Part shown: piece by piece, positions 8,459-32,092 of the stretch
Layout of the letters: each line of letters opens with the position of its first letter
How positions within the stretch are numbered: position 1 is the stretch's first letter
Origin: Planctomycetota bacterium
GTDB lineage: Bacteria > Planctomycetota > Planctomycetia > JALXBF01
DNA length: 64,000 bases
Assembly: GCA_026991575.1 (NCBI GenBank)
Contig: JALXBF010000118.1
Location: 62,001 to 126,000, forward strand
Direction: 5' to 3'
The notes under the pieces: generated by a model
Databases searched by the model: none
Seen by the model: the letters and a program-made list of their open reading frames with translations, nothing else
What the model was told of the DNA's origin: nothing
Program-made: the position numbers and the translations under genes

Positions 8459-9526
8459 TCACTCCCCGTGCGCTGCGAGCAGCTCGGCCAAGGCCGGGAC
8501 CTGCACCGGGGCGTGCTCTTGCAGACTCCGGGCGACGGCGTCCGTAAACGCCATATAACGCAAGCCGGTGATCGGATCGGTGAAGCGGACCGGAGCGCCG
8601 GAGCGGATTGAGTTGATGAAGTCGGCTTCTACCTGCCAGCCACGCCGCCGCGCGGGAGGAACAGGTAATTCGCGAAATTCACCGCCAGCCTCGGCGACCG
8701 TCACCTCTTCCGTCGTACCAAACCGGCACTGCAACGTGGCTTTGCTTCCATACAGGGTGATCGAAACGCCTGGGCCGCCGTGCGCCACATGGCTCATGTG
8801 GTAGATGCCCATCGCGCCGCCCGGGAAGCGGGCCAGCACATGGACCGCATCCGGCAGCTCCACGGGAACCACCGCTCCGGTCGTCGGGTCTACCCGTTCG
8901 GGTACGAAAGCTTGAGCCTGAGCAAAAACCTCCACCGGGTCGGGCAGCCAGCGGATGAGCGTTTCGTGCAGGATGCCCAGCATCACCATGTTGATGCCGC
9001 TCAGCTCACGCACCTGCCGCCAACTCAGCGGCACCTGCTCATCCGCCCACTGGTCGTTCACCGCGACCACCACCACTTCCCGTAACTTCCCCAGCCTGCC
9101 GCTCTTCAGGTACTCAAGAACCGCATCGTGAATCTCCAGACCGAACGGGCTAGGGACAATCTGCAGTACCAGCTCCGGATGGCGCCGCGCCGCTTCTACC
9201 ATGAGCTGCGCTTCATGCAGAGAGCGTGCCATACGCGCTTCGCACAGCACGTGTTTACCCTGCTCCAGAGCTGCGACTGTGATCGGCGCGTGCAAATAGG
9301 GCCAGGTGCCGATGAGGATCGCGTCGATCTCGGGGTCCCGGACAAGGTCTTGCCATCGCTCATACCGGCGAGGAATGCCGTACTCGGCGGCTGCGCGCTG
9401 GGTCGAAGCAGGCGTACGGTTGCAGACGGCGACGATCTCCACATCGTCGCACCGCTGCAGGCCCGGGACGTGCCGCTCTCGGCAGTTGCGACCGAGCCCC
9501 ACGATCCCGACGCGTATCCGCGCCAT
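8459..9526 (-). CDS. Gfo/Idh/MocA family oxidoreductase
   Basis: IRVGIVGLG Rossmann start; IDAILIGTWPYLH; GKHVLCEARM. Confidence 0.92.
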   Translation of the reverse strand: MARIRVGIVGLGRNCRERHVPGLQRCDDVEIVAVCNRTPASTQRAAAEYGIPRRYERWQDLVRDPEIDAILIGTWPYLHAPITVAALEQGKHVLCEARMARSLHEAQLMVEAARRHPELVLQIVPSPFGLEIHDAVLEYLKSGRLGKLREVVVVAVNDQWADEQVPLSWRQVRELSGINMVMLGILHETLIRWLPDPVEVFAQAQAFVPERVDPTTGAVVPVELPDAVHVLARFPGGAMGIYHMSHVAHGGPGVSITLYGSKATLQCRFGTTEEVTVAEAGGEFRELPVPPARRRGWQVEADFINSIRSGAPVRFTDPITGLRYMAFTDAVARSLQEHAPVQVPALAELLAAHGE

Positions 9527-9584
9527 CCCATCTCCTCCCTCCGCCCGGAATCACGCCACCGGTTGCCACCCGGCGCCACGTATC

Positions 9585-10889
9585 CTACGGGTTCTTTCGC
9601 AAAAAGAGCCACACCCACCCGTGGTACTCGCGCGATCGGGGTAGTTGGGAGGAGATCTGCCGGTACTCGGTCAGCGTCTTCTGCAGCTGCTCTTGCAGCG
9701 TCGCCCGAGCCTGGGGGTCCTTGGCGCGGGCAAGCTGTCTGGCCAGTCGAGCATACTCGGCAAGCTTCTGCTGAGCTTTCTCGCGCAACGCAGCGACCCG
9801 CTCGGATTGCTCGCTGCTGAGGCTCTGCGGACCGGGCCGCCACGAGCAAAAGTCGCCCAGCAGAATGTCCAGCAAGCCATCGCCGTTGTAATCGGTGACG
9901 CAGATCTTTGCACGCATACCGTGGCGAGGCTTGTCGGGACGGTCGCTTGCCCCAGGGCCAATGATCTGACGGCCGGCAGCAAGCCGCGGTGACTCGCGGC
10001 TGCCGACGTTCTCAAAGAGCCACACGCTGCCGTTGCCTGCGCCGACGAGCAGATCCAGATCACCGTCACCGTCCCAGTCGGCCACGGCGGGACCGGCATC
10101 GCCGGAGGCGACTCTCAGAGGCTTGCCCTGGACCAGAAGCTTCTCTGCCGGACCGAACGCAGGCGCTTTCGGCGTACCTTCGTTGGGAACGAGCCAGACG
10201 TTGCCCCGAATGTCACCGACGATGAGATCGTAGTCCCCGTCACCGTCCCAGTCAGCCACACAAACAGCCGACGCGCAGCCAGTCCGCCCCACCGGGGTGC
10301 CGGCTGGAAACTCGTGACGCTGCCCGTTATAGATGACGACAGTCTTCTGGTCCGTTTGTTCGATCTCGGCATCACCAACCACAACCACCATGCGGCCTGA
10401 CTTGCGGATGCCGCCGCCAACGTTGATGACCCGACCGTCCTGATGCCTGAGCTTCTGTGGAGCGGCAAAATCACCGTTCGGCAGTCGCTTGAAGAAGTAG
10501 ATTTCACCGGGCCACGAGCCAGAGATCAGGTCCGTGAGACCGTCACCGTCCAGGTCCACTAACTGTGGACCAAAGCCGATGCATCACCCAGCAGGGACAC
10601 AGCCCTCCGGCTTGCCGTCTTTGAACAGCTTGCCGGGGCCGAAGCGGGGGGCATCGTTCGTACCGACGTTCTTGAAGATCCAAAGCTTACCGCCTCCGAA
10701 CTGGCCGACCAGCAGATCCCGGACTCCATCACCGTCGAAGTCGGCCAGTAGCGGTGCTGCATGGCCGACCTCAACATCGATCGGTTTCCCATCTGCTTCA
10801 ATGCGAACCGGTGGGTGGAACAGTTCATCAGCCCAGGCACCAGCCGTCAGCGCCGCAACAGCGGCAAGTACTGCAGAGCTTAGACGCAT
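9585..10889 (-). CDS. Secreted FG-GAP/VCBS-repeat protein, 434 aa, with in-frame UGA (putative selenocysteine 102, G-U-C)
   Basis: ORFs 10584..10907 and 9585..10559 share a frame and are separated only by TGA 10586-10584. Read-through gives CVPAG-U-CIGFGPQLVDLDGDG. Repeated DxDGDGxxDL motifs, signal peptide, GGAGG RBS, SECIS-like hairpin. Confidence 0.8.
10553..10571 (-). promoter_or_regulatory. Putative bacterial SECIS hairpin
   Basis: GGTCCAC-AGTTA-GTGGACC, a perfect 7-bp stem starting 12 nt after the in-frame TGA. Confidence 0.7.
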
Positions 10890-11803
10890 CGCTTGGCCTC
10901 CCGACAATCACCGAGGTGCAGTCGACGAACACGACCACCAGTATAGCGAATCGAACGGCCCAGCCGACGATGCCGTCGTCGGGGCGACGAAGGCACCTCC
11001 GCTGTCCCCGGTACATCGGCGTTGCCGGTCACGCACGTGCCGTCTCGGCCAGCTGGTCGGAGCAACGGAGCATTTGCCGAAGCGTTGCGCCATAAACACG
11101 CCGCTTTCTTGCATGCATTCTTCGGGGGGGGAATACGAAGGCACCATGACGAGGCGCGGGTAACGACCGCTCCCAGATACCGAGGGGGGTACGACCTGGG
11201 CCGATGGCGGCGCATCGGGGCTCGACTGGGCGGACAAACCCGTGGAAGGGCGTAACGGCCCACCTGGTGCGTTGAAGTACGACGCCCTTGCGTTCTGGCT
11301 TCTGGGCGGTGGTGCAGCACTGCCGAATTGTCACTGCCGGGCCATGATGCAGCGACGAGCGGTGACATGGTGTCGATCGATGAGTGGTCTCCGAGCCCAT
11401 CGTCTAGCTCACCGAGGACATCGCACTGCTGCTCCTGCTGCCAGGCACATCTTCCAACGGTGGCAGCCCAAGCGTGTCGTCAACCAAGGATGGTCATAGC
11501 GCGGCGTGGTGTGCATCCGGGGGCGGTGAGGTGGTGGACGCGGGTCTGTGGCATTACTTCGGCCGGTGTTCCAGGCGTCGTTGTCGCCGTCGTGGGGCGG
11601 GGAAGCCCGGGGCGGTACCGGACGGTGCCGAATCGCAGGAGCGATTGGCATGCCAGCTGGCCGAGGTCGCTTGCTGCGGCCTTGGTTGGGCGACCGTGTA
11701 CGCAGCGGCTGAACGGGCCCCAGGGGCCCGCCAGCCGGTTTGCATCGGCGAGGCGGCTCGCTAAGCTAGTAGACAGTGACGCGACCGTTTCAGGGAGAAC
11801 GCC

Positions 11804-12802
11804 ATGGCTGGAGCGAACCGAGCCGATCTGAGCCGTAGGTCATTTCTGAAGCTGTCTGGTACAGCGGCGGGGGCCCTGTGGTTGGCGAAGAGAACTGAGG
11901 GTGCCGATCCGAGGCCACAGCGGGTGCCGCAAACGGTGTTGGGGAGGACGGGACAGCAGGTTTCGCGGCTTGGCGTTGGCTGTGCTCCCCTGCAGCGGCC
12001 TCACGTGAAGCGTGAGGATATCGAGGAGCTGGTGGACCGGGCGCTGAGCCTCGGCGTGAACTACTTCGATGTCGCCCCGAATTACGGCAACCCGCAGATC
12101 GGCTTTTCCGAAGAGAAGCTGGGACCGGTGATCAAGCACGTGCGTGAAGAGATCTTCCTGGTGACGAAGACTGAGGAGCCGACCTACGAGGGCACGTGGC
12201 GCCTGCTGCGCCAGAGTCTCCGTCGTCTGCAGACCGATTACCTTGATCTGGTGCACCTGCACAACTTCGGCTACGAGCCGCGATTTAAGGACCTGGAGTT
12301 GGTTTTCAGCGATCGTGGTGCGCTCGGTGCGCTGCGTGAGGCGAAGCGGAAAGGAGTGATCCGTTTCATCGGTGCCAGCGGCCACCTGCATCCGTCCCGT
12401 TTCCACGCCGTCCTGGACACGGGCGAGATCGACGTGCTGATGAATGCCGTCAACTTCATCGTCTGCCACGTCTATGACTTCGAGCACAAGGTCTGGTCGC
12501 GGGCGCGGCGTGAGAATTTGGGGTTGGTCGCCATGAAGGTCCTGGGCGGTCGTGGTCGAGAAGGGGGCTTCAGGATACCGGAGCAGTTCTACGAGCAGGC
12601 GATCCGGTATGCGCTATCCATTCCTGGGGTGCACGTTGCGGTGATTGGGACGGAGAACGCTCGCGAGCTACAGGAGGCTGCCGACGTAGTCGCTGCCTTT
12701 CGGCCGCTCAGCCCGGAAGAGAAGCATCGGCTGCTGATGGAGGGGTTGCGGTTGGCCGCGACCCCGGCCTGGCGCACCGCATACGGAACGCCCACTCTGT
12801 AA
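11804..12802 (+). CDS. Tat-exported aldo/keto reductase
   Basis: Twin-arginine signal SRRSFLK; LGRTGQQVSRLGVG, GVNYFDVAPNYG, LVTK, DYLDLVHLH. Confidence 0.92.
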   Translation: MAGANRADLSRRSFLKLSGTAAGALWLAKRTEGADPRPQRVPQTVLGRTGQQVSRLGVGCAPLQRPHVKREDIEELVDRALSLGVNYFDVAPNYGNPQIGFSEEKLGPVIKHVREEIFLVTKTEEPTYEGTWRLLRQSLRRLQTDYLDLVHLHNFGYEPRFKDLELVFSDRGALGALREAKRKGVIRFIGASGHLHPSRFHAVLDTGEIDVLMNAVNFIVCHVYDFEHKVWSRARRENLGLVAMKVLGGRGREGGFRIPEQFYEQAIRYALSIPGVHVAVIGTENARELQEAADVVAAFRPLSPEEKHRLLMEGLRLAATPAWRTAYGTPTL

Positions 12803-24459: not shown

Positions 24460-25800
24460 CTAGCTACGCGGGCTGGAAAGGTCCAGCACGCCGTTGCCTG
24501 TGCCCGCAATCCGTTCAGGCAGGAATGCGACCTGACCATGTAGTTGTTGCACACGCCCAACCGCCGACCGGGGTAGTCGACACGTGACCTCCGCCTGACC
24601 ATTGTCCTGTGCCTGGTGCTCGACGATAGCGTGCGTGCGCAGGAAGCTGGAGAGTTTCCAGTTCGTGGTGTCAAACGTCACACGCACATAGGCGAATTGC
24701 TCGGCCAGCTTCTCAAGCACCTTGGCAGCCAACCGGTCCAGGCCTTGGCCAGTCTGGGCGCTGACGACGACCGTGTCTGGCAGTCGGGCCCGCAGCAGCT
24801 CGATGTAGCTGCGATCGGGGACAATGTCCGCTTTGTTCAGCACGTGGATGGCCGGCTTCTTCGCGCAGCCGAGTTCGGCCAACACCTCGTGCACTGCCCG
24901 CGCCTGGTCCAGAGCATGCACGTTCGCTGCGTCGATGACGTGCAGCAACAGATCCGCCTGGCGCACTTCCTCCAGCGTTGCCCGGAAGGACGCGACTAGG
25001 TGGTGAGGCAGATCCCGGATGAAGCCGACCGTATCGCTCAGCAGCACCTGGCCCCAGCCGGGCAGTTTCCAGCGGCGGGTGCGCGTATCGAGTGTGGCGA
25101 ACAGGGCGTCCTCCACGAACACTCCGGCGCCGGTGAGCGCGTTCATCAACGTGCTCTTGCCGGCATTCGTGTAGCCTACGAGGCTGACGGTAATCTCGTC
25201 GCCCCGGCTGGCCACCGTCTGCGCCTTGCGCCGCTCAATGGCCCGCAGCTGCCGTTTCAGGTCCGTGATCCGGCGGGCGATCACCCGGCGGTCTTCTTCG
25301 AGCTGTTGCTCACCGGGCCCGCGCATTCCGATACCGCCCTTGATACGGCCCAGGTGGGTCCACATCCGCCGCAACCTGGGCAAGGCATACTGCAGCTGCG
25401 CCAACTCCACCTGCAGCCGCGCCTCGTGCGTACGTGCCCGGGTGGCGAAGATGTCCAGGATCAGCTCGGTGCGGTCCAGCACACGAGCGCGGACCACTCG
25501 TTCGAGGTTGCGGACCTGGGCAGGTGACAAGTCGTTGTCGAAGATGACGATGTCGGCCTTGTGCGCTTTTACCAGCTCGGCAAGCTCCTGCGTCTTGCCC
25601 CGGCCAATGTAGGTCGATGCGTCCGGCTTCTGACGCTTCTGGACCAATGTTGCGACGACGTGGGCACCGGCCGTTTCGGCCAGTCCGTACAGCTCTTCCA
25701 GAGGGTTGCGGTCGTCCCAGGTCTTCCCGGGCAGGATAACGCCGACAAGGATCGCCCGCTCATTGCGGACTTTCAGCTGGATATCAGCGAACTTCGCCAC
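24460..25800 (-). CDS. hflX: Ribosome-splitting GTPase HflX
   Basis: LILDIFATRA, RGPGEQQLE, VGYTNAGKSTL, LFATLD, SDTVGFI, NKAD. Confidence 0.96.
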   Translation of the reverse strand: MAKFADIQLKVRNERAILVGVILPGKTWDDRNPLEELYGLAETAGAHVVATLVQKRQKPDASTYIGRGKTQELAELVKAHKADIVIFDNDLSPAQVRNLERVVRARVLDRTELILDIFATRARTHEARLQVELAQLQYALPRLRRMWTHLGRIKGGIGMRGPGEQQLEEDRRVIARRITDLKRQLRAIERRKAQTVASRGDEITVSLVGYTNAGKSTLMNALTGAGVFVEDALFATLDTRTRRWKLPGWGQVLLSDTVGFIRDLPHHLVASFRATLEEVRQADLLLHVIDAANVHALDQARAVHEVLAELGCAKKPAIHVLNKADIVPDRSYIELLRARLPDTVVVSAQTGQGLDRLAAKVLEKLAEQFAYVRVTFDTTNWKLSSFLRTHAIVEHQAQDNGQAEVTCRLPRSAVGRVQQLHGQVAFLPERIAGTGNGVLDLSSPRS

Positions 25801-26108
25801 GTTGTTCTCGTTACGCGGTGCCGAACCTCAGGTCCTCTCGTTCCAGGAGTTCTTCCCAAGCTGCCCATCCCGGCCCTAGCTTCGACGGACCGAGCCGGCT
25901 TGCCGTTCCAGCGCCATGATAAATGTGGGCCGCCAGGTGGTCAACGACCGGTCCACGCCTCACCTGCGACCCACACGTACGCCCGGTCGTTCCGATCGTG
26001 CAACAAGTTGGTGTTGCTGTCTGCCTCCAACGAGAAACGCGTGACCGGGGACGGTCGCGCGCTCAGGGCGCTGGCGTGAGCGAAGCGGTCACGCACGCGG
26101 GGTGGTTG

Positions 26109-26540
26109 TCACAGTGCCAAAGGGCCGTCCCATTCGGGCGGGCCCGGTGGACTGCAGAAGTTGCCGGGCAGGGCCGCCAGGAAGCGGCCGCCAATCTGGT
26201 AGTAGCCCCGAGTGGTGAACTTCACCCAGCGCGGCTGAAACAGCATGTGGCACCAGGGCCGATCCTCGGTCCAGAAACTCAACACGGCCTGCTCCGTACG
26301 TAGCAGCTGTTTCACGATCAGTCCAAAGCCACCGGCAGAGATGTCGGTTACCAGCGCGTGGAACGATTCCTCCGGCAGTGCGCGGCCCGACTTAGGGTCG
26401 ATCGGGGTAACGGTCACAGGCTGGTGCAGCGGATAACGCCGAGCCTGCCGCCGTTCGCGACGCGTGACGACGAACCCGTTTGCTTCCAGAATGCGCGTGA
26501 TCGCCTGATCAAGATCTGGGCTGAAGGCGGCTTGCTTCAC
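26109..26540 (-). CDS. Stand-alone PilZ domain protein
   Basis: RRQARR (RxxxR) and DISAGG (DxSxxG) c-di-GMP-binding motifs. Confidence 0.82.
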   Translation of the reverse strand: MKQAAFSPDLDQAITRILEANGFVVTRRERRQARRYPLHQPVTVTPIDPKSGRALPEESFHALVTDISAGGFGLIVKQLLRTEQAVLSFWTEDRPWCHMLFQPRWVKFTTRGYYQIGGRFLAALPGNFCSPPGPPEWDGPLAL

Positions 26541-26718
26541 GGTTGCCCCCCACGTTCGACGGTGACATGAAGGCGGTGAGCGTCCCCGAGATGTTGCTCA
26601 CTCTAACCTAGCTTGCGATCCGGGCGCGGCAAACTGCGGCGGCTCAGAATGCTGTCGCCAGGCGGCGCAGTAGAATAGGTCCTCCCGTGAACGGCCCACC
26701 GAGCTTGGAGGTTCAGCC

Positions 26719-27384
26719 ATGTTACGTACAGCCCTTTCGGTGGCAGGTGCCGCTGCGCTGGCTCTAGCCCTGGCCAACCTCGCCGCAACCGCTCCGTCGC
26801 CTGGTGCAGAAGACGGATACGTGTCGATCTTCAACGGCAAAGATCTGACGGGGTGGATCGAGCGCGGATCTAAAGGCGGTTGGATCGTCGAGAACGGCCT
26901 GTTGGTGTGCACGCCGAAAGGCCGCTTCCTGTTCACGGAAAAGGAGTACTCGGATTTCAGCTTCAAGTTCGAGTTCAAGCTGACGCCCGGAGCGAACAAC
27001 GGCGTCTGCATCCGGTCCCCACTGCAGGGCAATCCTGCCTACGACGGGATCGAGATTCAGATTCTTGACGACTACCACCCGCGGTACCTCGGTCGGCTCC
27101 GACCAGCTCAGTACCACGGCTCCATTTACGACGTGTGGCCGGCACGGCGGGGGTTCCTGCGCGAGGCGGGCGAGTGGAACGAGGAGGAGATCATTTGCAG
27201 GGGCCCGAAGATCAAGGTGATCCTCAACGGCGCCGTGATTGTTGATGCCGACCTGACGAAGGCGACCGATCCGAAAGTGCTTGCAAGACATCCGGGCCTA
27301 AAGCGCACCAAGGGGCACCTGGGCTTCTTCGGCCACGGGGATCGCGTCGAGTTTCGGAACTTGCGCGTGAAGGAGTTCAAGTAG
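26719..27384 (+). CDS. DUF1080 / 3-keto-disaccharide hydrolase family secreted protein
   Basis: Signal peptide; IFNGKDLTGW, EIQILDD, GEWNEEEI, VEFRNL. Confidence 0.92.
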   Translation: MLRTALSVAGAAALALALANLAATAPSPGAEDGYVSIFNGKDLTGWIERGSKGGWIVENGLLVCTPKGRFLFTEKEYSDFSFKFEFKLTPGANNGVCIRSPLQGNPAYDGIEIQILDDYHPRYLGRLRPAQYHGSIYDVWPARRGFLREAGEWNEEEIICRGPKIKVILNGAVIVDADLTKATDPKVLARHPGLKRTKGHLGFFGHGDRVEFRNLRVKEFK

Positions 27385-27400
27385 GCCGTACGGCAGCACG

Positions 27401-28975
27401 GTGTTCGGAGCGCTACTGAGCACTGCAGCAGCGACCAGCGAAGGCCATCCGTATGGCCTCTGGTCGCTGTTGCCCGCTGTGGTCGCCATTGTCCTTGCTT
27501 TCTGGACACGCAACGTGCTGCTTGCTCTGTTCGTTGCCGTGCTGACCGGTTCCGCGGTGCTCTATGCCCATAGTGGGCGGCTGGAGGATTGGAACTTCCT
27601 GGAGCGGTTCTTCCTTCCGGCGCTTGGCACGCCGGGATACGCCCGGATACTGCTCATTTATCTCTGGTTCCTAGGGGGGATCCTTGGGCTGTGGGAGTAC
27701 ACGGGAGCGGCCCGCCACTTCGCCGAATGGGCCGCCCGGCTGGTGCGCGGCCCGCGCTCTGCGAAGTTTGTCGCCTGGTTGCTGGGCTGTGTGTTCCACC
27801 AGGGGGGGACCGTGAGCACGGTGCTGGCCGGCACCACGGCCCGCCCGGTAGCGGAACGCCATCGCGTCAGCCACGAGGAGCTCGCCTACATCGTTGACTC
27901 CACCGCCTCACCCGTGGCCACCATCATCCCGCTGAATGTCTGGCCGGCATACGTGGCGGGCTTGATCGCCGGCGTGAGCCTGCAGGGCCAGGTGCTGGTG
28001 GCCGATGCGTCCGAAGGCGTGCGCTGGTTTCTGCGCGCGCTGCCGTTCAACTTCTACGCGATGTTCGCCGTCGGCATGACGCTGCTGTTCAGTCTGGACC
28101 TGTGGCCGTTCATGGGGCGGAAAATGCGGGAAGCACGCCGGCGGGCCCGGTCACTAGGCCAGCTCGACCGACCCGGTGCCCAACCGATGCTCACCGGCAC
28201 ACCGGGACCCGAGGCGGCCACGGACTACCCGGTGTCGCTAGCCGACTTCTTAGTGCCGCTGCTTGTGCTGATCGTCGTGGCACTGGTGCCGCATGTCGCT
28301 CACTGGGCCGGTGTTACCCATTTGCCCTACTTTGGTACGCGACGCGATGCGATCAACGAAGCATTCTTTCTGGGCACGGCCAGCGCAATCGCGCTGGCCA
28401 TTTTCAAGGGCTTGCGACCGGGCCAACTTGTGGATGCGTTTGTGCGTGGGTGTCAGAACATGACGCTAGGGGCCATGATCCTTGGGCTGGCCGTGACGCT
28501 GGGCCAGGTTGCCAGGGTGCTGGATCCCGCTGGCTATCTTGTCCAGCTTCTTGCCCGGCACGTACCGTATTGGGCCCTGCCGGCTGCCCTGATGCTGCTG
28601 TGCATGGTCGTTTCCTTCTCGATCGGGTCGTCCTGGGGCACTTACGCGGTGGTCTACCCGATGGCACTGCCCCTGGCGTTTGCCGTGGCGGTTCGAACGT
28701 ACGGTGTTGAGGTGGCTGGTCTCGCCGAGTTGGCTCGGCACGACCCGGCCGCGGCAGCAGCAATCAACCGGTACGTGGCCGTTTGCTTCGCGGCCGTGCT
28801 CGGTGGCGCAGTGTTCGGGGACCAGTGTTCGCCGATATCCGACACTACAGTACTGTCAGCCCTGTTCACGGGCTGCGACCTGATGGACCATGTCGAAACG
28901 CAGTTGCCGATGGCCCTGATGGCCGCCGCTGCCGCAGCGGCAGCCGCCACGTTAACCGTGCTGTTGCTGTGCTGA
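27401..28975 (+). CDS. Na+/H+ antiporter NhaC family transporter
   Basis: WSLLPAVVAI, ELAYIVDSTASP, GSSWGT, GAVFGDQCSPISDTTVLSA, DHVETQ. Confidence 0.9.
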   Translation: MFGALLSTAAATSEGHPYGLWSLLPAVVAIVLAFWTRNVLLALFVAVLTGSAVLYAHSGRLEDWNFLERFFLPALGTPGYARILLIYLWFLGGILGLWEYTGAARHFAEWAARLVRGPRSAKFVAWLLGCVFHQGGTVSTVLAGTTARPVAERHRVSHEELAYIVDSTASPVATIIPLNVWPAYVAGLIAGVSLQGQVLVADASEGVRWFLRALPFNFYAMFAVGMTLLFSLDLWPFMGRKMREARRRARSLGQLDRPGAQPMLTGTPGPEAATDYPVSLADFLVPLLVLIVVALVPHVAHWAGVTHLPYFGTRRDAINEAFFLGTASAIALAIFKGLRPGQLVDAFVRGCQNMTLGAMILGLAVTLGQVARVLDPAGYLVQLLARHVPYWALPAALMLLCMVVSFSIGSSWGTYAVVYPMALPLAFAVAVRTYGVEVAGLAELARHDPAAAAAINRYVAVCFAAVLGGAVFGDQCSPISDTTVLSALFTGCDLMDHVETQLPMALMAAAAAAAAATLTVLLLC

Positions 28976-29488
28976 GGCGGCCCGCACGACTTGCTGGAGC
29001 AGGGCAACGTTCCGTTCCACCGCCGCGTACTCGAAGAAGTAGCTGACCAGGTTGAAGCCGACGGCCACCAGCGCGGCCGAAAGGTGAACCCAGGAGGGCA
29101 CGGATCCGTTGTCGCAGGCTGCGCCGAGAATGGTGGTCACAATGATGAGCACCATGCTGAAGAAAGCGAACGGGAAGCAACGCGCCTTCAGCTTACGCGT
29201 GGCTCGTTCCAGGGCCGGGTCCAATCGCCACCTGGCCACCGCTTCTTTCACCCACCGTCCTGTGCCGATGAAATAAGTCATGACGATACTGTGCACCAGA
29301 AGCGTGGCGATACCGGCCAGGAGGCCGACAAGGAAGTGGCGATGGAACGCTGCGTTCAGTGCCTGGATCCGGGATGCTTCCACCGTGGCTGCGACCGCTT
29401 CACGTGGCTCCGCGTGCAGACCGAGCCAGAAAGCGGCCGCCAGCAGCAGGAGGTTCAAGACGGTGAGGCCCGTTAAGATGCGTTGCAC
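28952..29488 (-). CDS. Four-helix membrane protein of unknown function
   Basis: Hydrophobic ORF from GTG 29488 with GGAGG RBS; HSIVMTYFIGTGRWVKE. The upstream part of the track ORF is antisense shadow. Confidence 0.75.
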   Translation of the reverse strand: MQRILTGLTVLNLLLLAAAFWLGLHAEPREAVAATVEASRIQALNAAFHRHFLVGLLAGIATLLVHSIVMTYFIGTGRWVKEAVARWRLDPALERATRKLKARCFPFAFFSMVLIIVTTILGAACDNGSVPSWVHLSAALVAVGFNLVSYFFEYAAVERNVALLQQVVRAASAQQQHG

Positions 29489-29545
29489 GCCATCCTCCGG
29501 CAACTGGACATCGGTCTCGCGATGATTGAATCGGGGTAGTCGCTC

Positions 29546-32092
29546 GTGAGCAACCGGGCAAGTGGCCCCGTAACCCGCTACCTGATCGGCTGGCTGCTGG
29601 TTTTCGCCACCACGCTTGCCGCCGTCACCGCCACATTGGACGACCCCGGGCTGACGTGGGATGAACCAGCCTACCTGCACAGCGCCCGGGGGGATCTCCG
29701 CGTCCCGCCGGGGCCGCCGCAGTCTGTATCGGATTATTATCACCGCCAGTGCGGTGCTCTCCGATGGCTCAGGCGTGTGATCGGGGCCGCCTCGGCTGAG
29801 GAGCGTCGTCGGTTGTTGTCCCGCGACGCCGTGCTGAGGGCATGGGACTACAACCGCTATGGGCCGAATTTCCACCCACCGCTTAGCGGGTTAATGGCGA
29901 TCGCCGGCCACTTGGTGAGTCGCCCGTGGTTGTCGGAGCTGGCCTCGTGGCGTTTTGCCAGCGGTGTGCAGTTTGCGGCCGTTGTAGCCTGCCTGTACGT
30001 CGTGATCGCTGCCCGTTTCGGCCCCTGGCCTGGCCTGGTCGCCGCCGCAGCCTTGGGGCTGACACCCCGTGTCTTTGGTCACGCACACATCTTCGGTACA
30101 GATACCCCCACGCTGTTCATTTGGGTGCTGACCGCGCTGGCGTTCTGGCGCGGGTTCCGCAGCCGGCCGGCACGCTTGGCCTTCGGCGCGCTGGCAGGGC
30201 TGGCATTCATCACCAAGATGAACGCGCTGGCTGTGCTGCTGCCGCTGACGGTGTGGACCGCGTTCTCATGGCTCAACGGTGCGCGGCCAACGCTGCGAAC
30301 TGCTGCTGCCGGGGCACTTATCTTGGCTGCTCTGGCCCCGCTGGCACTGGCGGTGGCCGAGGTCGACCGGCAGGCGCGCCTGATCCGGGTGCAGACCAAG
30401 AGGGAACTTCTGCGACAGGCTGCCACGCTGTTGCAGGTTCCACTGCCTCGCGGTCTGGACGCCGCTGATGAAAGCCGGCTCGAGACGATGGCTCTGCAGA
30501 TTGCGGAGCAGGCCGCTCAACGGCGGGGGATCCTGCCGCAACAAGCCCCTGAGTCCCCGGCCGCACGGCTACGCCAGCTCGCACAGCAGCTCGCAGTGCC
30601 GCAACTAGTCCTGGACGACTACATCAAATACATCTGGGCCGACCAGCTCAGGGTGCCCTCGGCGATTTCTCGCGTGGTCCTCGCACTGCCTCTGGTTCCG
30701 CTGGCGGTATGGCTGCTGGCGGTGCCGGCCCGCGTGGCATCCCAGAACCCGGCCATAGCAACCGCGGAGATGGTTCTGACAGGGGCCGCATTCGGTCCGA
30801 TCGTTGCCATCGCGTTGAATCCCACCTGGTGGTTCGATACGTACACCCAGCTTGCGCTGTACTACCTGGTCAGCGTTGGCCGCAAGGGGGCACTTCCGGA
30901 CATCGAAGTGTTCTACCTGGCCCAGAAGTACATCTACAGCCTGCCGTGGCACAACGGCTTCGTGCTGGTCGCCGTCACCGTTCCCGTGCTGCTGCTAGTG
31001 TGGGCGGTCGTAGGGCTGTCGTGGGGCCTGGGCGTGCGGTCACAAAGAGCCTGGACACTGTACGTCGCGGCGCATCTGCTGACGCTCCCATTGCTGCGCA
31101 TGTTCCCCGTACCGGCACACGACGGGGTTCGCCTGATGTTGCCGACGTTCTGGTTCCTGGCTGCGGCCGTCGGGCTCGGCTTTGCTGCGTTGGGAGCGCT
31201 GTTGCGTCGATTCGAGGCGGGCTGGGGGGGCCGACATGCGACCTTTGCGCTCGCGGCGCTCGTGACGCTGCTGCCGTGTGCCGTGCAGCTCGTACGGATC
31301 CATCCATACGAGCTCTCCTACTACAACCTTGCCGTAGGGGGGCTCCCCGGTGCCCAACAGCTCGGCTTCGAAACCACCTACTGGTACGATGCTGTCACCG
31401 ACGAGGTCTTGGCCAAGATGAACGACCTTCGCCGCGGCTTGCCCCGCGGTGCCGTGCTACACCCGCCGTCACCGAAGAGCAACACGCCGGTCTTTGGCGA
31501 GTTGCAGGATATGGGAAAGCTCCGCGAAGACATCAGGCTCGACGTGGCACCGGCCAGTGGCTTTCCGTACATGTGGCTGCTGACACATTCCGCAAAGTCC
31601 ACCCCGTTCAGTCGTGTGCTCTACGCGCTGGCACCGCGCCTGGAGCACTCCTGGAACGGCGTCCGCCTGTTCAGCATTTACGATCCCCGACAGGTGGCGC
31701 GTGCCTATGCGCTGACGTTGTTCCTGCGCGACGTGGACGCGGAGCCGGGGCCGAGAGTGGCAACGGAGCTGGTTCGCGTTGCGCGCGAAAGTCCCTCTGC
31801 GGTTGTGCAGGCAGCAGTGCTGCTGGTTGAACTCGGACCGGACCAGGCTCAAGCGCGGCTAAGCCGCCAGCGTCGGCCGGTGCGGGTCGTTGTGGCGCAC
31901 CTACTGCGGCAACGCCATGACCTGGACCAACTCCTGCAACGGGCACCGGGCGCGTTAACGGAGGCTGCCGAGATCCTGGTCCAGGCTGCCCAGCAACGTC
32001 CGGAAGTGCTGCACAAGCTGATCGAGTACCCCGGTTACTTGAGCCACGCGGAACTAGGCGAATTCCTCGACGCCAGCTACCAACGCCCTTGA
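29546..32092 (+). CDS. ArnT/PMT-like (GT-C fold) glycosyltransferase
   Basis: GLTWDEP acidic loop, HPPL, PRVFGHAH, HDGVRL, SYYN; multiple TM segments. Confidence 0.85.
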   Translation: MSNRASGPVTRYLIGWLLVFATTLAAVTATLDDPGLTWDEPAYLHSARGDLRVPPGPPQSVSDYYHRQCGALRWLRRVIGAASAEERRRLLSRDAVLRAWDYNRYGPNFHPPLSGLMAIAGHLVSRPWLSELASWRFASGVQFAAVVACLYVVIAARFGPWPGLVAAAALGLTPRVFGHAHIFGTDTPTLFIWVLTALAFWRGFRSRPARLAFGALAGLAFITKMNALAVLLPLTVWTAFSWLNGARPTLRTAAAGALILAALAPLALAVAEVDRQARLIRVQTKRELLRQAATLLQVPLPRGLDAADESRLETMALQIAEQAAQRRGILPQQAPESPAARLRQLAQQLAVPQLVLDDYIKYIWADQLRVPSAISRVVLALPLVPLAVWLLAVPARVASQNPAIATAEMVLTGAAFGPIVAIALNPTWWFDTYTQLALYYLVSVGRKGALPDIEVFYLAQKYIYSLPWHNGFVLVAVTVPVLLLVWAVVGLSWGLGVRSQRAWTLYVAAHLLTLPLLRMFPVPAHDGVRLMLPTFWFLAAAVGLGFAALGALLRRFEAGWGGRHATFALAALVTLLPCAVQLVRIHPYELSYYNLAVGGLPGAQQLGFETTYWYDAVTDEVLAKMNDLRRGLPRGAVLHPPSPKSNTPVFGELQDMGKLREDIRLDVAPASGFPYMWLLTHSAKSTPFSRVLYALAPRLEHSWNGVRLFSIYDPRQVARAYALTLFLRDVDAEPGPRVATELVRVARESPSAVVQAAVLLVELGPDQAQARLSRQRRPVRVVVAHLLRQRHDLDQLLQRAPGALTEAAEILVQAAQQRPEVLHKLIEYPGYLSHAELGEFLDASYQRP

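Follow-up and report, generated by a model that had tools for sequence, protein, structure and literature searches.

An in-frame UGA probably read as selenocysteine in a predicted exported FG-GAP beta-propeller protein of Planctomycetota

One reading frame on both sides of a TGA codon

In the window, that is, the whole stretch of 64,000 nucleotides (nt) of Planctomycetota DNA analysed here, two open reading frames (ORFs) of the minus strand lie one behind the other in the same frame. The first (10907-10584) ends at the TGA codon 10586-10584, and the second (10559-9585) begins with GTG after eight further sense codons. A preliminary description of this DNA, made from its letters, had held that the two ORFs are parted by this TGA alone and belong to one selenoprotein gene; its statements about the sequence were all checked on the minus strand, this one included, and are correct. 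Translation from the ATG at 10889-10887 with TGA read as selenocysteine (Sec, U) gives a protein of 434 residues (...KPEGCVPAG-U-CIGFGPQLVDLDGDGLTDL...) in which Sec is residue 102 and the directly adjoining residue 103 is Cys (TGC, 10581-10583); the immediate surroundings of the Sec read ...CVPAG-U-CIGFGPQLVDLDGDG.... We interpret the region 9585-10889, with its 434 codons and the TAG stop at 9585-9587, very probably as one gene encoding an exported FG-GAP beta-propeller selenoprotein, and the comparison of related sequences indicates that UGA-102 is in all probability recoded as Sec.

A GGGAGG at 10897-10902, which we take as a putative Shine-Dalgarno-like sequence, is situated 7 nt 5' of the ATG. 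Residues 1-20 (MRLSSAVLAAVAALTAGAWA, 10830-10889), followed by DE, possess a basic start, a hydrophobic core and an AxA site with likely cleavage before D21; the predicted local distance difference test (pLDDT) score of the structural model is below 60 over these residues, and the orthologues have similar hydrophobic N-termini. Going by such features, the N-terminus looks like a signal peptide of the Sec (export) type, as had been proposed before, and from it we infer export of the protein.

The TGA itself was reproduced in an independent assembly from the sequencing run that is probably the source of this DNA (contig depth ~ 41), in which no differences were found over positions 10400-10800. 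The preliminary description had called for the TGA to be confirmed in raw reads; the agreement between assemblies is in its favor, and we count it against a sequencing or assembly error. Its expectation that automatic annotation would cut the gene was borne out by the best 120 database relatives, all of which are C-terminal pieces of 322-349 residues labelled "hypothetical" or "FG-GAP-like repeat" that cover 71-76% of the query, namely the part following the TGA.

Conservation of the UGA site and the downstream hairpin

To what extent the TGA is shared by related genes was assessed in two samples. For the first, 401 genomes of the same class were searched in all six frames (E<=1e-17), without choosing loci by peptide pattern; matches were obtained in 58 genomes, two of them to the repeats only. 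Among the 56 family-bearing genomes, the codon aligned with UGA-102 was TGA in 41, Cys in 12 and another codon in three. The second sample came from a combined pattern and tblastn scan with one genome per species, of which the best 80 of at least 352 relatives were used. Together, the samples comprised 140 loci, or 129 distinct loci after 11 duplicates had been dropped, with TGA in 104, Cys in 18 and other codons in seven. Thus, TGA or Cys is found at residue 102 in 122 of the 129 distinct related loci, with conserved sequence on both flanks. The vicinal U-C motif described earlier holds for most of the family, although it is not universal: Sec is followed by Cys in 100 of the 104 Sec forms (by D in two, S in one and H in one), a few relatives are without Cys at the site, and 17 of the 18 Cys forms carry a second Cys.

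In alignment A1, which consists of 38 complete genes out of 60 class-sample loci, the Sec/Cys column is invariant. The 22 loci left out of A1 include truncated, frameshifted or contig-end copies, three diverged genes (L044, L049 and L072) and seven Sec-form genes that look complete, such as L031, L046, L051, L062 and L079. The TGA forms span many families and at least two phyla. According to their labels, the best 80 of at least 352 relatives belong to Planctomycetota (Pirellulales, Gemmatales, Isosphaerales, Planctomycetales and Phycisphaerae/Sedimentisphaerales) and in part to Verrucomicrobiota, with a few metagenome-assembled genomes (MAGs) labelled Armatimonadota, Bacteroidales and Alcaligenaceae. 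A search of 1.84 billion representative proteins yielded 1364 matches at E<=1e-30, a number that is no measure of family size, as giant multi-repeat FG-GAP proteins dominate it; full-length relatives from this library show C-C, C-R, C-Y and C-A at the site.

Several genomes harbor more than one copy of the gene. Six family copies on three contigs, all with an in-frame TGA, were found in one Planctomycetota MAG (CBDFNI01; L103, L113, L128, L133, L143 and L146), and four genomes (G343, G351, G363 and G395) have two copies each from different subfamilies. Several closed genomes of the class sample, for instance G028, G031 and G318, are among the carriers of a Sec form. In locus L033 (G315), a second in-frame TGA replaces the Trp of DWDGDG (ATD*DGDG); the explanation may be a sequencing error, a pseudogene or a further site of recoding. 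Broken or truncated frames occur in draft MAGs (L035, L042, L050, L070, L081 and L082).

The TGA is followed, after 12 nt, by a sequence able to form a perfect 7-bp hairpin (10553-10571) with the stem GGUCCAC/GUGGACC (10571-10565 and 10559-10553) and the loop AGUUA (10564-10560). It encodes G-P-Q-L-V-D, and both the GTG "start" of the second ORF and the first codon of the DLDGDG motif of repeat 2 fall within its 3' arm. Both the hairpin and its burying of the GTG had been noted in the preliminary description, and across the relatives the hairpin behaves as a selenocysteine insertion sequence (SECIS). The consensus bacterial SECIS model of Zhang and Gladyshev, as summarised in a 2026 review (PMC13188914), has a loop of 3-9 nt, an upper stem of 4-16 bp, a G in the first two loop positions, a UGA-to-loop distance of 16-37 nt and a minimum free energy (MFE) of -7.5 kcal/mol or lower. 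The hairpin agrees with this summary in all respects, with a loop of 5 nt (AGUUA), a stem of 7 bp, a UGA-to-loop distance of 19 nt and -11.3 kcal/mol for the hairpin alone. The 47 nt beginning at the TGA fold with -19.4 kcal/mol (z = -2.79), and two of 200 shuffled sequences fold equally well.

The pairing is retained throughout the Sec forms. Across the 104 of them, the first three of the five core pairs are UA in 102, CG in 104 and CG in 100; the fourth is AU in 80, CG in four, GC in four and GU in six, with an unpaired C/U in ten; and the fifth is CG in 100 and UA in one. Where the encoded peptide differs (PRVVD, PHVVD, PMLGD, PCVMD, PQLAD, PQVAD and RPRFGD variants), the hairpin is kept by compensatory changes on both sides, for example as CCGCG-UGU-CGCGG, CUCCCA-UGU-UGGGAG or CGUCCCC-GGUUC-GGGGACG. 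In the 45 Sec forms of the class sample, 81.6% of the cells are paired, a share that drops to 22-44% on sliding the partners by 1-3 columns. Folding of a 19-nt window gave a mean MFE of -8.6 kcal/mol in the Sec forms (n = 104) versus -1.15 kcal/mol in the Cys forms (n = 18), from which the hairpin is absent. The Sec forms retain PQ[LF]VD with rare codons, and the Cys forms drift to PRFVD with free codons.

The strongest SECIS signal is the constraint on synonymous sites, for which the hairpin codons of 45 genes were compared with the rest of the same genes. Pro is encoded by CCA in 40 of 44 cases (background 8.1%), Val by GTG in 43 of 44 (35%) and Gln by CAG in 44 of 44 (68.8%); all 22 Leu codons of the loop are TTR (13.5%), and the preceding variable codon, for Gly, Thr, Ser, Cys or Val, has T as its third letter in 44 of 45 genes (11.4%). 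The TTA codon to which the preliminary description had drawn attention is indeed rare, accounting for 1.4% of the Leu codons in long ORFs of this genome with 64.2% GC, but TTA as such is not conserved: the orthologues use TTG, TTT, TTC or TTA here, so the constraint lies on the loop letters UU and not on TTA. The SECIS overlies the most conserved FG-GAP peptide, and one stretch would therefore be constrained both as RNA and as protein. On these comparisons, we regard the hairpin as the SECIS of the gene.

Selenocysteine machinery and alternative readings of the UGA

The genome assembly (4.96 Mb in 191 contigs, 97.8% complete, 64.2% GC) contains the genes needed for Sec insertion, whose presence the preliminary description had proposed to check: selD, selB and selA are consecutive on contig C184 (~ 25019-29791, L001-L003), and tRNA-SeC(tca), the selC product, follows just after selA. 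The respective matches scored 484 bits for SelA, 70.7 bits for the SelB wing domain and 358 bits for SelD. The selD gene is itself a selenoprotein gene with an in-frame TGA within the canonical SCAG-U-AGK site, and its SECIS (CCGCACAGGUUGUGCGG) begins ~ 25 nt past this UGA; the tips of the two hairpins are alike (CACAGGUUGUG in selD and CACAGUUAGUG in the propeller gene). A genome-wide reassignment of TGA is excluded, because release factor 2 is present (493.9 bits, cut-off 370) and TGA is the commonest ordinary stop, found at the end of 851 of 1837 open frames with 400 or more codons.

Is the state of the site linked to the ability to insert Sec? Among the same 401 genomes, 244 gave SelA matches. 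A match is present in 40 of the 41 Sec-form genomes, the exception (G211) being 76% complete and split into 1110 contigs, whereas of the 12 Cys-form genomes, two have a strong match, one a weak match (E 1.7e-24) and nine none; related genomes are not independent, so this cross-tabulation is presented as a pattern without a statistical test. In genus g17, all eight family members are Cys-Cys, and none of the 13 genomes has SelA. SelA-type matches are very unevenly distributed among bacterial families (e.g., 82 of 88 genomes in f7 and 17 of 98 in f6), and several genera show only weak matches (E 1e-27 to 1e-35), which may belong to paralogous pyridoxal phosphate enzymes instead.

In a quick maximum-likelihood tree of 38 rows, which is unrooted and in which L061 forms a long branch, the six Cys rows make up one clade (Shimodaira-Hasegawa-like approximate likelihood ratio 100) nested within the Sec forms of the "IY-U-C" subfamily (supports 99 and 87). 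This topology would fit a single replacement followed by spread among lineages without SelA, with Sec to Cys as the likely direction. Sec appears to be the older state; the Cys-Cys forms constitute one nested clade, mostly in genomes without SelA.

According to our interpretation, UGA-102 would be read by the ordinary bacterial route. The mRNA hairpin (GGUCCAC/GUGGACC with the loop AGUUA) would act as the SECIS that brings in SelB with Sec-tRNA(Sec), the latter supplied by the genome's own selD-selB-selA-selC cluster, and the ribosome would insert Sec instead of stopping.

Three other explanations of the TGA have to be weighed against this route. TGA is a normal stop in this genome, and the codon could be a true stop after a secreted fragment of 107 residues, with a separate protein of 324 residues starting at GTG 10559; this is how the relatives are called in public data, where the best 120 proteins begin past the TGA and query residue 111 is the exact starting point of several representatives. 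Such a start codon, however, would sit inside the 3' arm of the conserved hairpin, and its protein would be left without a signal peptide. Moreover, the eight codons between TGA and GTG are conserved as protein (CIGFGPQL) in more than 100 loci, the Cys forms run uninterrupted through the site, and the structural model of the joined chain is a single propeller, with the first strand supplied by one "fragment" and the last by the other. We consider a true stop very improbable. A further possibility is selenium-free read-through, by a near-cognate tRNA (Trp, Cys or Arg) or through a local signal. The hairpin would then be a stimulator instead of a SelB site, as there are other systems in which read-through of a stop codon can be enhanced by structures located 3' of it. 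It is hard to reconcile with the presence of SelA in 40 of 41 TGA-form genomes and of Cys, the classical partner of Sec, in relatives and in lineages without SelA; the hairpin also agrees with the SECIS model of the SelB type and is similar to the SECIS in the genome's own selD, which leaves this explanation highly unlikely. The chance of a pseudogene or of a sequencing or assembly error is close to nil. Deriving the present sequence from an ordinary Cys-Cys FG-GAP gene by a recent nonsense mutation would take one base, as TGA is one base away from TGC or TGT, and damaged-looking loci with extra TGA, TAG or truncated frames do exist in draft MAGs (L033, L042, L050, L070, L081 and L082), but the same TGA recurs in 104 distinct loci of many families and at least two phyla, the independent assembly agrees at a depth of ~ 41, the frame is otherwise intact, and the downstream RNA hairpin is under selection.

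A number of results weigh against the selenoprotein interpretation or detract from its support. The 80 loci of the second sample were partly picked by the peptide pattern P[QR][FL]VD[LIF]DxDG, which overlaps the hairpin, although the class sample, free of this bias, gives the same SECIS picture. Covariation statistics for the 45 sequences are modest, with two pairs changed on both sides and 12 of 500 shuffles reaching the score, because most stem pairs are invariant (three of seven never vary). A possible lower SECIS stem (CAUCG.. with ..CGGUG, 10544-10581), predicted tentatively for this sequence, has pairs that hold in 14 to 45 of 45 orthologues with weak covariation, and an Rfam scan of positions 10300-10800 (E<=10) returned two chance matches far under the gathering scores. 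In seven of the 129 distinct related loci, the site is occupied by residues other than Sec or Cys (e.g., G-Y, N-K, T or P), and some full-length library relatives carry W-N, P-D or G-R-C. Judging from these sequences, the U/C site is dispensable in some branches, from which it has disappeared entirely; this speaks against its being required throughout the family but leaves Sec in the TGA-carrying forms unaffected. A search of sequencing runs for the gene listed one DNA run and no RNA run carrying it. Finally, no neighbor is shared among 28 loci with 1.5-kb flanks, and among 51 loci with 3-kb flanks the commonest neighbors, resembling extracytoplasmic function sigma factors, occur at eight and six loci, too few for an operon.

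Predicted fold and the Sec-Cys pair

The joined protein matches the Pfam families FG-GAP_3 (PF13517, 86.8 bits, cut-off 26.9) and FG-GAP (PF01839, 60.9 bits, cut-off 22.1). An AlphaFold2 model based on the 38-row alignment (pLDDT 92.2, predicted template modelling score 0.87) shows, after the disordered residues 1-20, an all-beta body with five DxDxDG repeats starting at residues 50, 112, 213, 271 and 333; similar structures are the Psathyrella velutina lectin (PVL, 2bwr), integrin alpha, CRTAC1 (9etn) and TcB propellers. The protein is thus predicted to be a beta-propeller with putative Ca-binding DxDxDG loops. These loops are DFDGDG at residues 50-55 (10725-10742; D50 and G53 invariant in A1), DLDGDG at 112-117 (10539-10556; D112, D116 and G117 invariant in A1), DWDGDG at 213-218 (10236-10253; D213, W214, D217 and G218 at least 90% conserved), DWDGDG at 271-276 (10062-10079; D271 invariant) and DYNGDG at 333-338 (9876-9893; D333, D337 and G338 invariant). 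The Ca-binding propeller that had been proposed is therefore backed, as to its fold, by a confident model with five repeats, while Ca binding itself is a prediction.

In the model, the last strand, GWVWLFL (residues 423-429 within HGWVWLFLRK, 9603-9623; G424 invariant, W427 and L430 at least 90% conserved), joins the same propeller as the N-terminal strands and probably closes it. It is preceded by an inserted helical hairpin (residues 359-413, 9651-9815; helices 359-388 and 392-413 by DSSP on the model), whose length varies among the orthologues. A six-strand insert at residues ~ 134-205 (strands 160-203) is found only in the subfamily of this gene. Going by the model, the propeller is most likely five-bladed and not of the classical seven-bladed type.

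Sec102 and Cys103 are located in a confidently modelled loop of 18 residues (89-106, pLDDT ~ 90) that links the outer strand of blade 1 (83-88) to the inner strand of blade 2 (107-111). The corresponding loop of integrin-type propellers is on the usual binding face, opposite the Ca loops. By analogy, the U-C loop, which the preliminary description had proposed to locate by modelling, would face away from the Ca loops and be situated close to the central axis. Blade 2 alone has a conserved S-G-S (S123 and S125) where the other blades have V-G-x, and these serines may belong to the same site.

Additional cysteines are present in particular subfamilies. The Cys rows L048, L055, L057 and L064 (g17 and relatives) have a second vicinal pair, HCCPVVADWD, before the inner strand of blade 4, and in the "VW-U-CTSS" subfamily, blades 1 and 3 each have one Cys at the corresponding place (PCWAD and ICTRP). 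These positions hint at a thiol cluster around the propeller axis.

Another important question is what the U-C pair does. The product would be an exported Ca-loop FG-GAP propeller, most likely five-bladed and shut by its C-terminal strand, in which the pair could form a strained vicinal selenenylsulfide that is redox-active on a substrate held in the propeller cup. We give Sec102-Cys103 as a redox-active selenenylsulfide center about an even chance. Alternatively, the pair could serve as a ligand of a soft metal or metalloid (Hg, Cu(I), Cd or As) or of a cofactor without redox cycling, which would make the protein a periplasmic metal-handling propeller. Most of the catalogued families in which Cys and Sec adjoin are related to metals (CopZ-like with GxUC and CU, the MerB-like SaoL, HgcA and MbdU, according to the entries in PMC13188914), the further Cys residues before the inner strands of other blades in other subfamilies could cluster near the axis, and a hydrothermal vent metagenome is given as the nature of the run containing this DNA. 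On the other hand, of the positions concerned, 102 and 103 alone are shared by the whole family, the other Cys residues being specific to subfamilies; no metal-resistance or transport gene is a conserved neighbor; and, as labelled, the MAGs with the family come from freshwater, soil, groundwater and marine sources alike. We consider a metal or cofactor site unlikely, though it is the main rival of the redox reading. The most far-reaching version of the redox proposal is that this is the first beta-propeller selenoenzyme, exported, Ca-dependent and five-bladed, with a catalytic Sec102-Cys103 selenenylsulfide at the mouth of the central channel, ancestral in Planctomycetota and relatives and changed to Cys-Cys where the Sec machinery was lost; we put it forward tentatively, as a whole somewhat short of an even chance. 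If it is true, selenium could have a major, as yet uncounted, use outside the cytoplasm, since some genomes carry up to six Sec-containing copies.

Known selenoproteins and the surroundings of the gene

Table 1 of the 2026 review (PMC13188914) contains 119 prokaryotic selenoprotein families and subfamilies, none of which is listed as FG-GAP, VCBS or propeller, and the propeller family is not among the nine new families named in the deep-Sep paper. NCBIfam 20.0 gave no match to a selenoprotein model, the sole match being a chance one to an ISL3 transposase (15.8 bits, cut-off 180), and full-text literature searches found no description of an FG-GAP propeller selenoprotein family. The recoding mechanism proposed here is canonical; it is the selenoprotein family that is uncatalogued.

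The nearest precedent is provided by S9 Table of Kim et al. 2016 (PLoS One, PMC4807772), in which ASPIC/UnbV plus FG-GAP selenoprotein candidates are given for planctomycetes P1 and P2. The statement of the preliminary description that FG-GAP proteins are absent from the classical selenoprotein families thus holds for the table of 119 families but has to be qualified by these candidates. They are likewise planctomycete FG-GAP genes with an in-frame TGA that results in two IMG calls, mostly with a predicted SECIS. Unlike the propeller gene, the tabulated candidates possess an ASPIC/UnbV domain, which is not among the Pfam matches of the propeller protein at E<=0.1, and have Gly in the closest match, whereas the propeller gene pairs with Cys homologues. 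One further "hypothetical" P1 candidate in this table has Cys in Rhodopirellula sallentina; the table gives no sequence for it.

With bacterial genes that have a SECIS within the ORF, such as E. coli fdhF and selD, the propeller gene shares a UGA followed by a coding stem-loop with G-U in a small apical loop, a UGA-to-loop distance within 16-37 nt, dependence on selA/B/C/D and Cys homologues at the same position. It differs from the listed SECIS-dependent families in that the host is an FG-GAP propeller, not a thioredoxin-fold or molybdopterin protein, and in that the SECIS is laid over a conserved FG-GAP peptide (PQ[LF]VD + DxDG). A thioredoxin-fold UxxC/CxxU selenoprotein was considered as a candidate and rejected, as the motif is U-C without a spacer, no thioredoxin-type Pfam or NCBIfam match was obtained, and the model is a propeller.

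Adjacent Sec and Cys are also known from form 1 of the CopZ-like (2Fe-2S)-binding protein (GxUC), with which the subfamily of this gene shares the Gly before Sec, and from the CU families SaoL, SaoC, HgcA, MbdU and KCU-star, as catalogued in PMC13188914. In contrast to these small cytoplasmic or metal-handling proteins, members of the propeller family have 400-490 residues and are predicted to be exported; Pfam and NCBIfam scans revealed no relation in sequence or fold between the two groups. Mammalian thioredoxin reductase has a C-terminal Gly-Cys-Sec-Gly in which the vicinal Cys and Sec can close an eight-membered selenenylsulfide ring. It may serve as a chemical model for the mechanism, by analogy only, as the order is reversed (U-C) and the site internal in the propeller, and the two proteins have nothing in common in fold, compartment or domain of life.

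To our knowledge, the selenoproteins described so far are, with few exceptions, enzymes of the thioredoxin-like or metal-cofactor type. A propeller that is exported, bears Ca loops and has Sec and Cys side by side would place selenium in a new structural setting. Gene callers split every Sec form of the family. As the best 120 relatives are all C-terminal pieces, hundreds of public genes are likely to be wrong and the selenoproteomes of Planctomycetota, Verrucomicrobiota and their neighbors to be under-counted; a family profile would enable annotation pipelines to call these genes correctly.

The gene is flanked by unrelated oxidoreductases that are not conserved as its neighbors. Upstream, a gap of ~ 900 nt (10890-11803) extends to a divergent aldo/keto reductase gene with a Tat (twin-arginine translocation) signal (11804-12802). 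The gap has no convincing ORF, only overlapping mechanical ones, and no match to a sigma-70-type promoter, a scan of positions 9300-11900 having found no such site. At the other end, a terminator-like hairpin with a T-run (CCACGGGTGGGTGTGG CTCTTTTT; 9609-9624, minus strand) is present within the last codons (HGWVWLFL), ~ 20 nt 5' of the stop, and the next gene, encoding a Gfo/Idh/MocA oxidoreductase (8459-9526), begins 58 nt past the stop.

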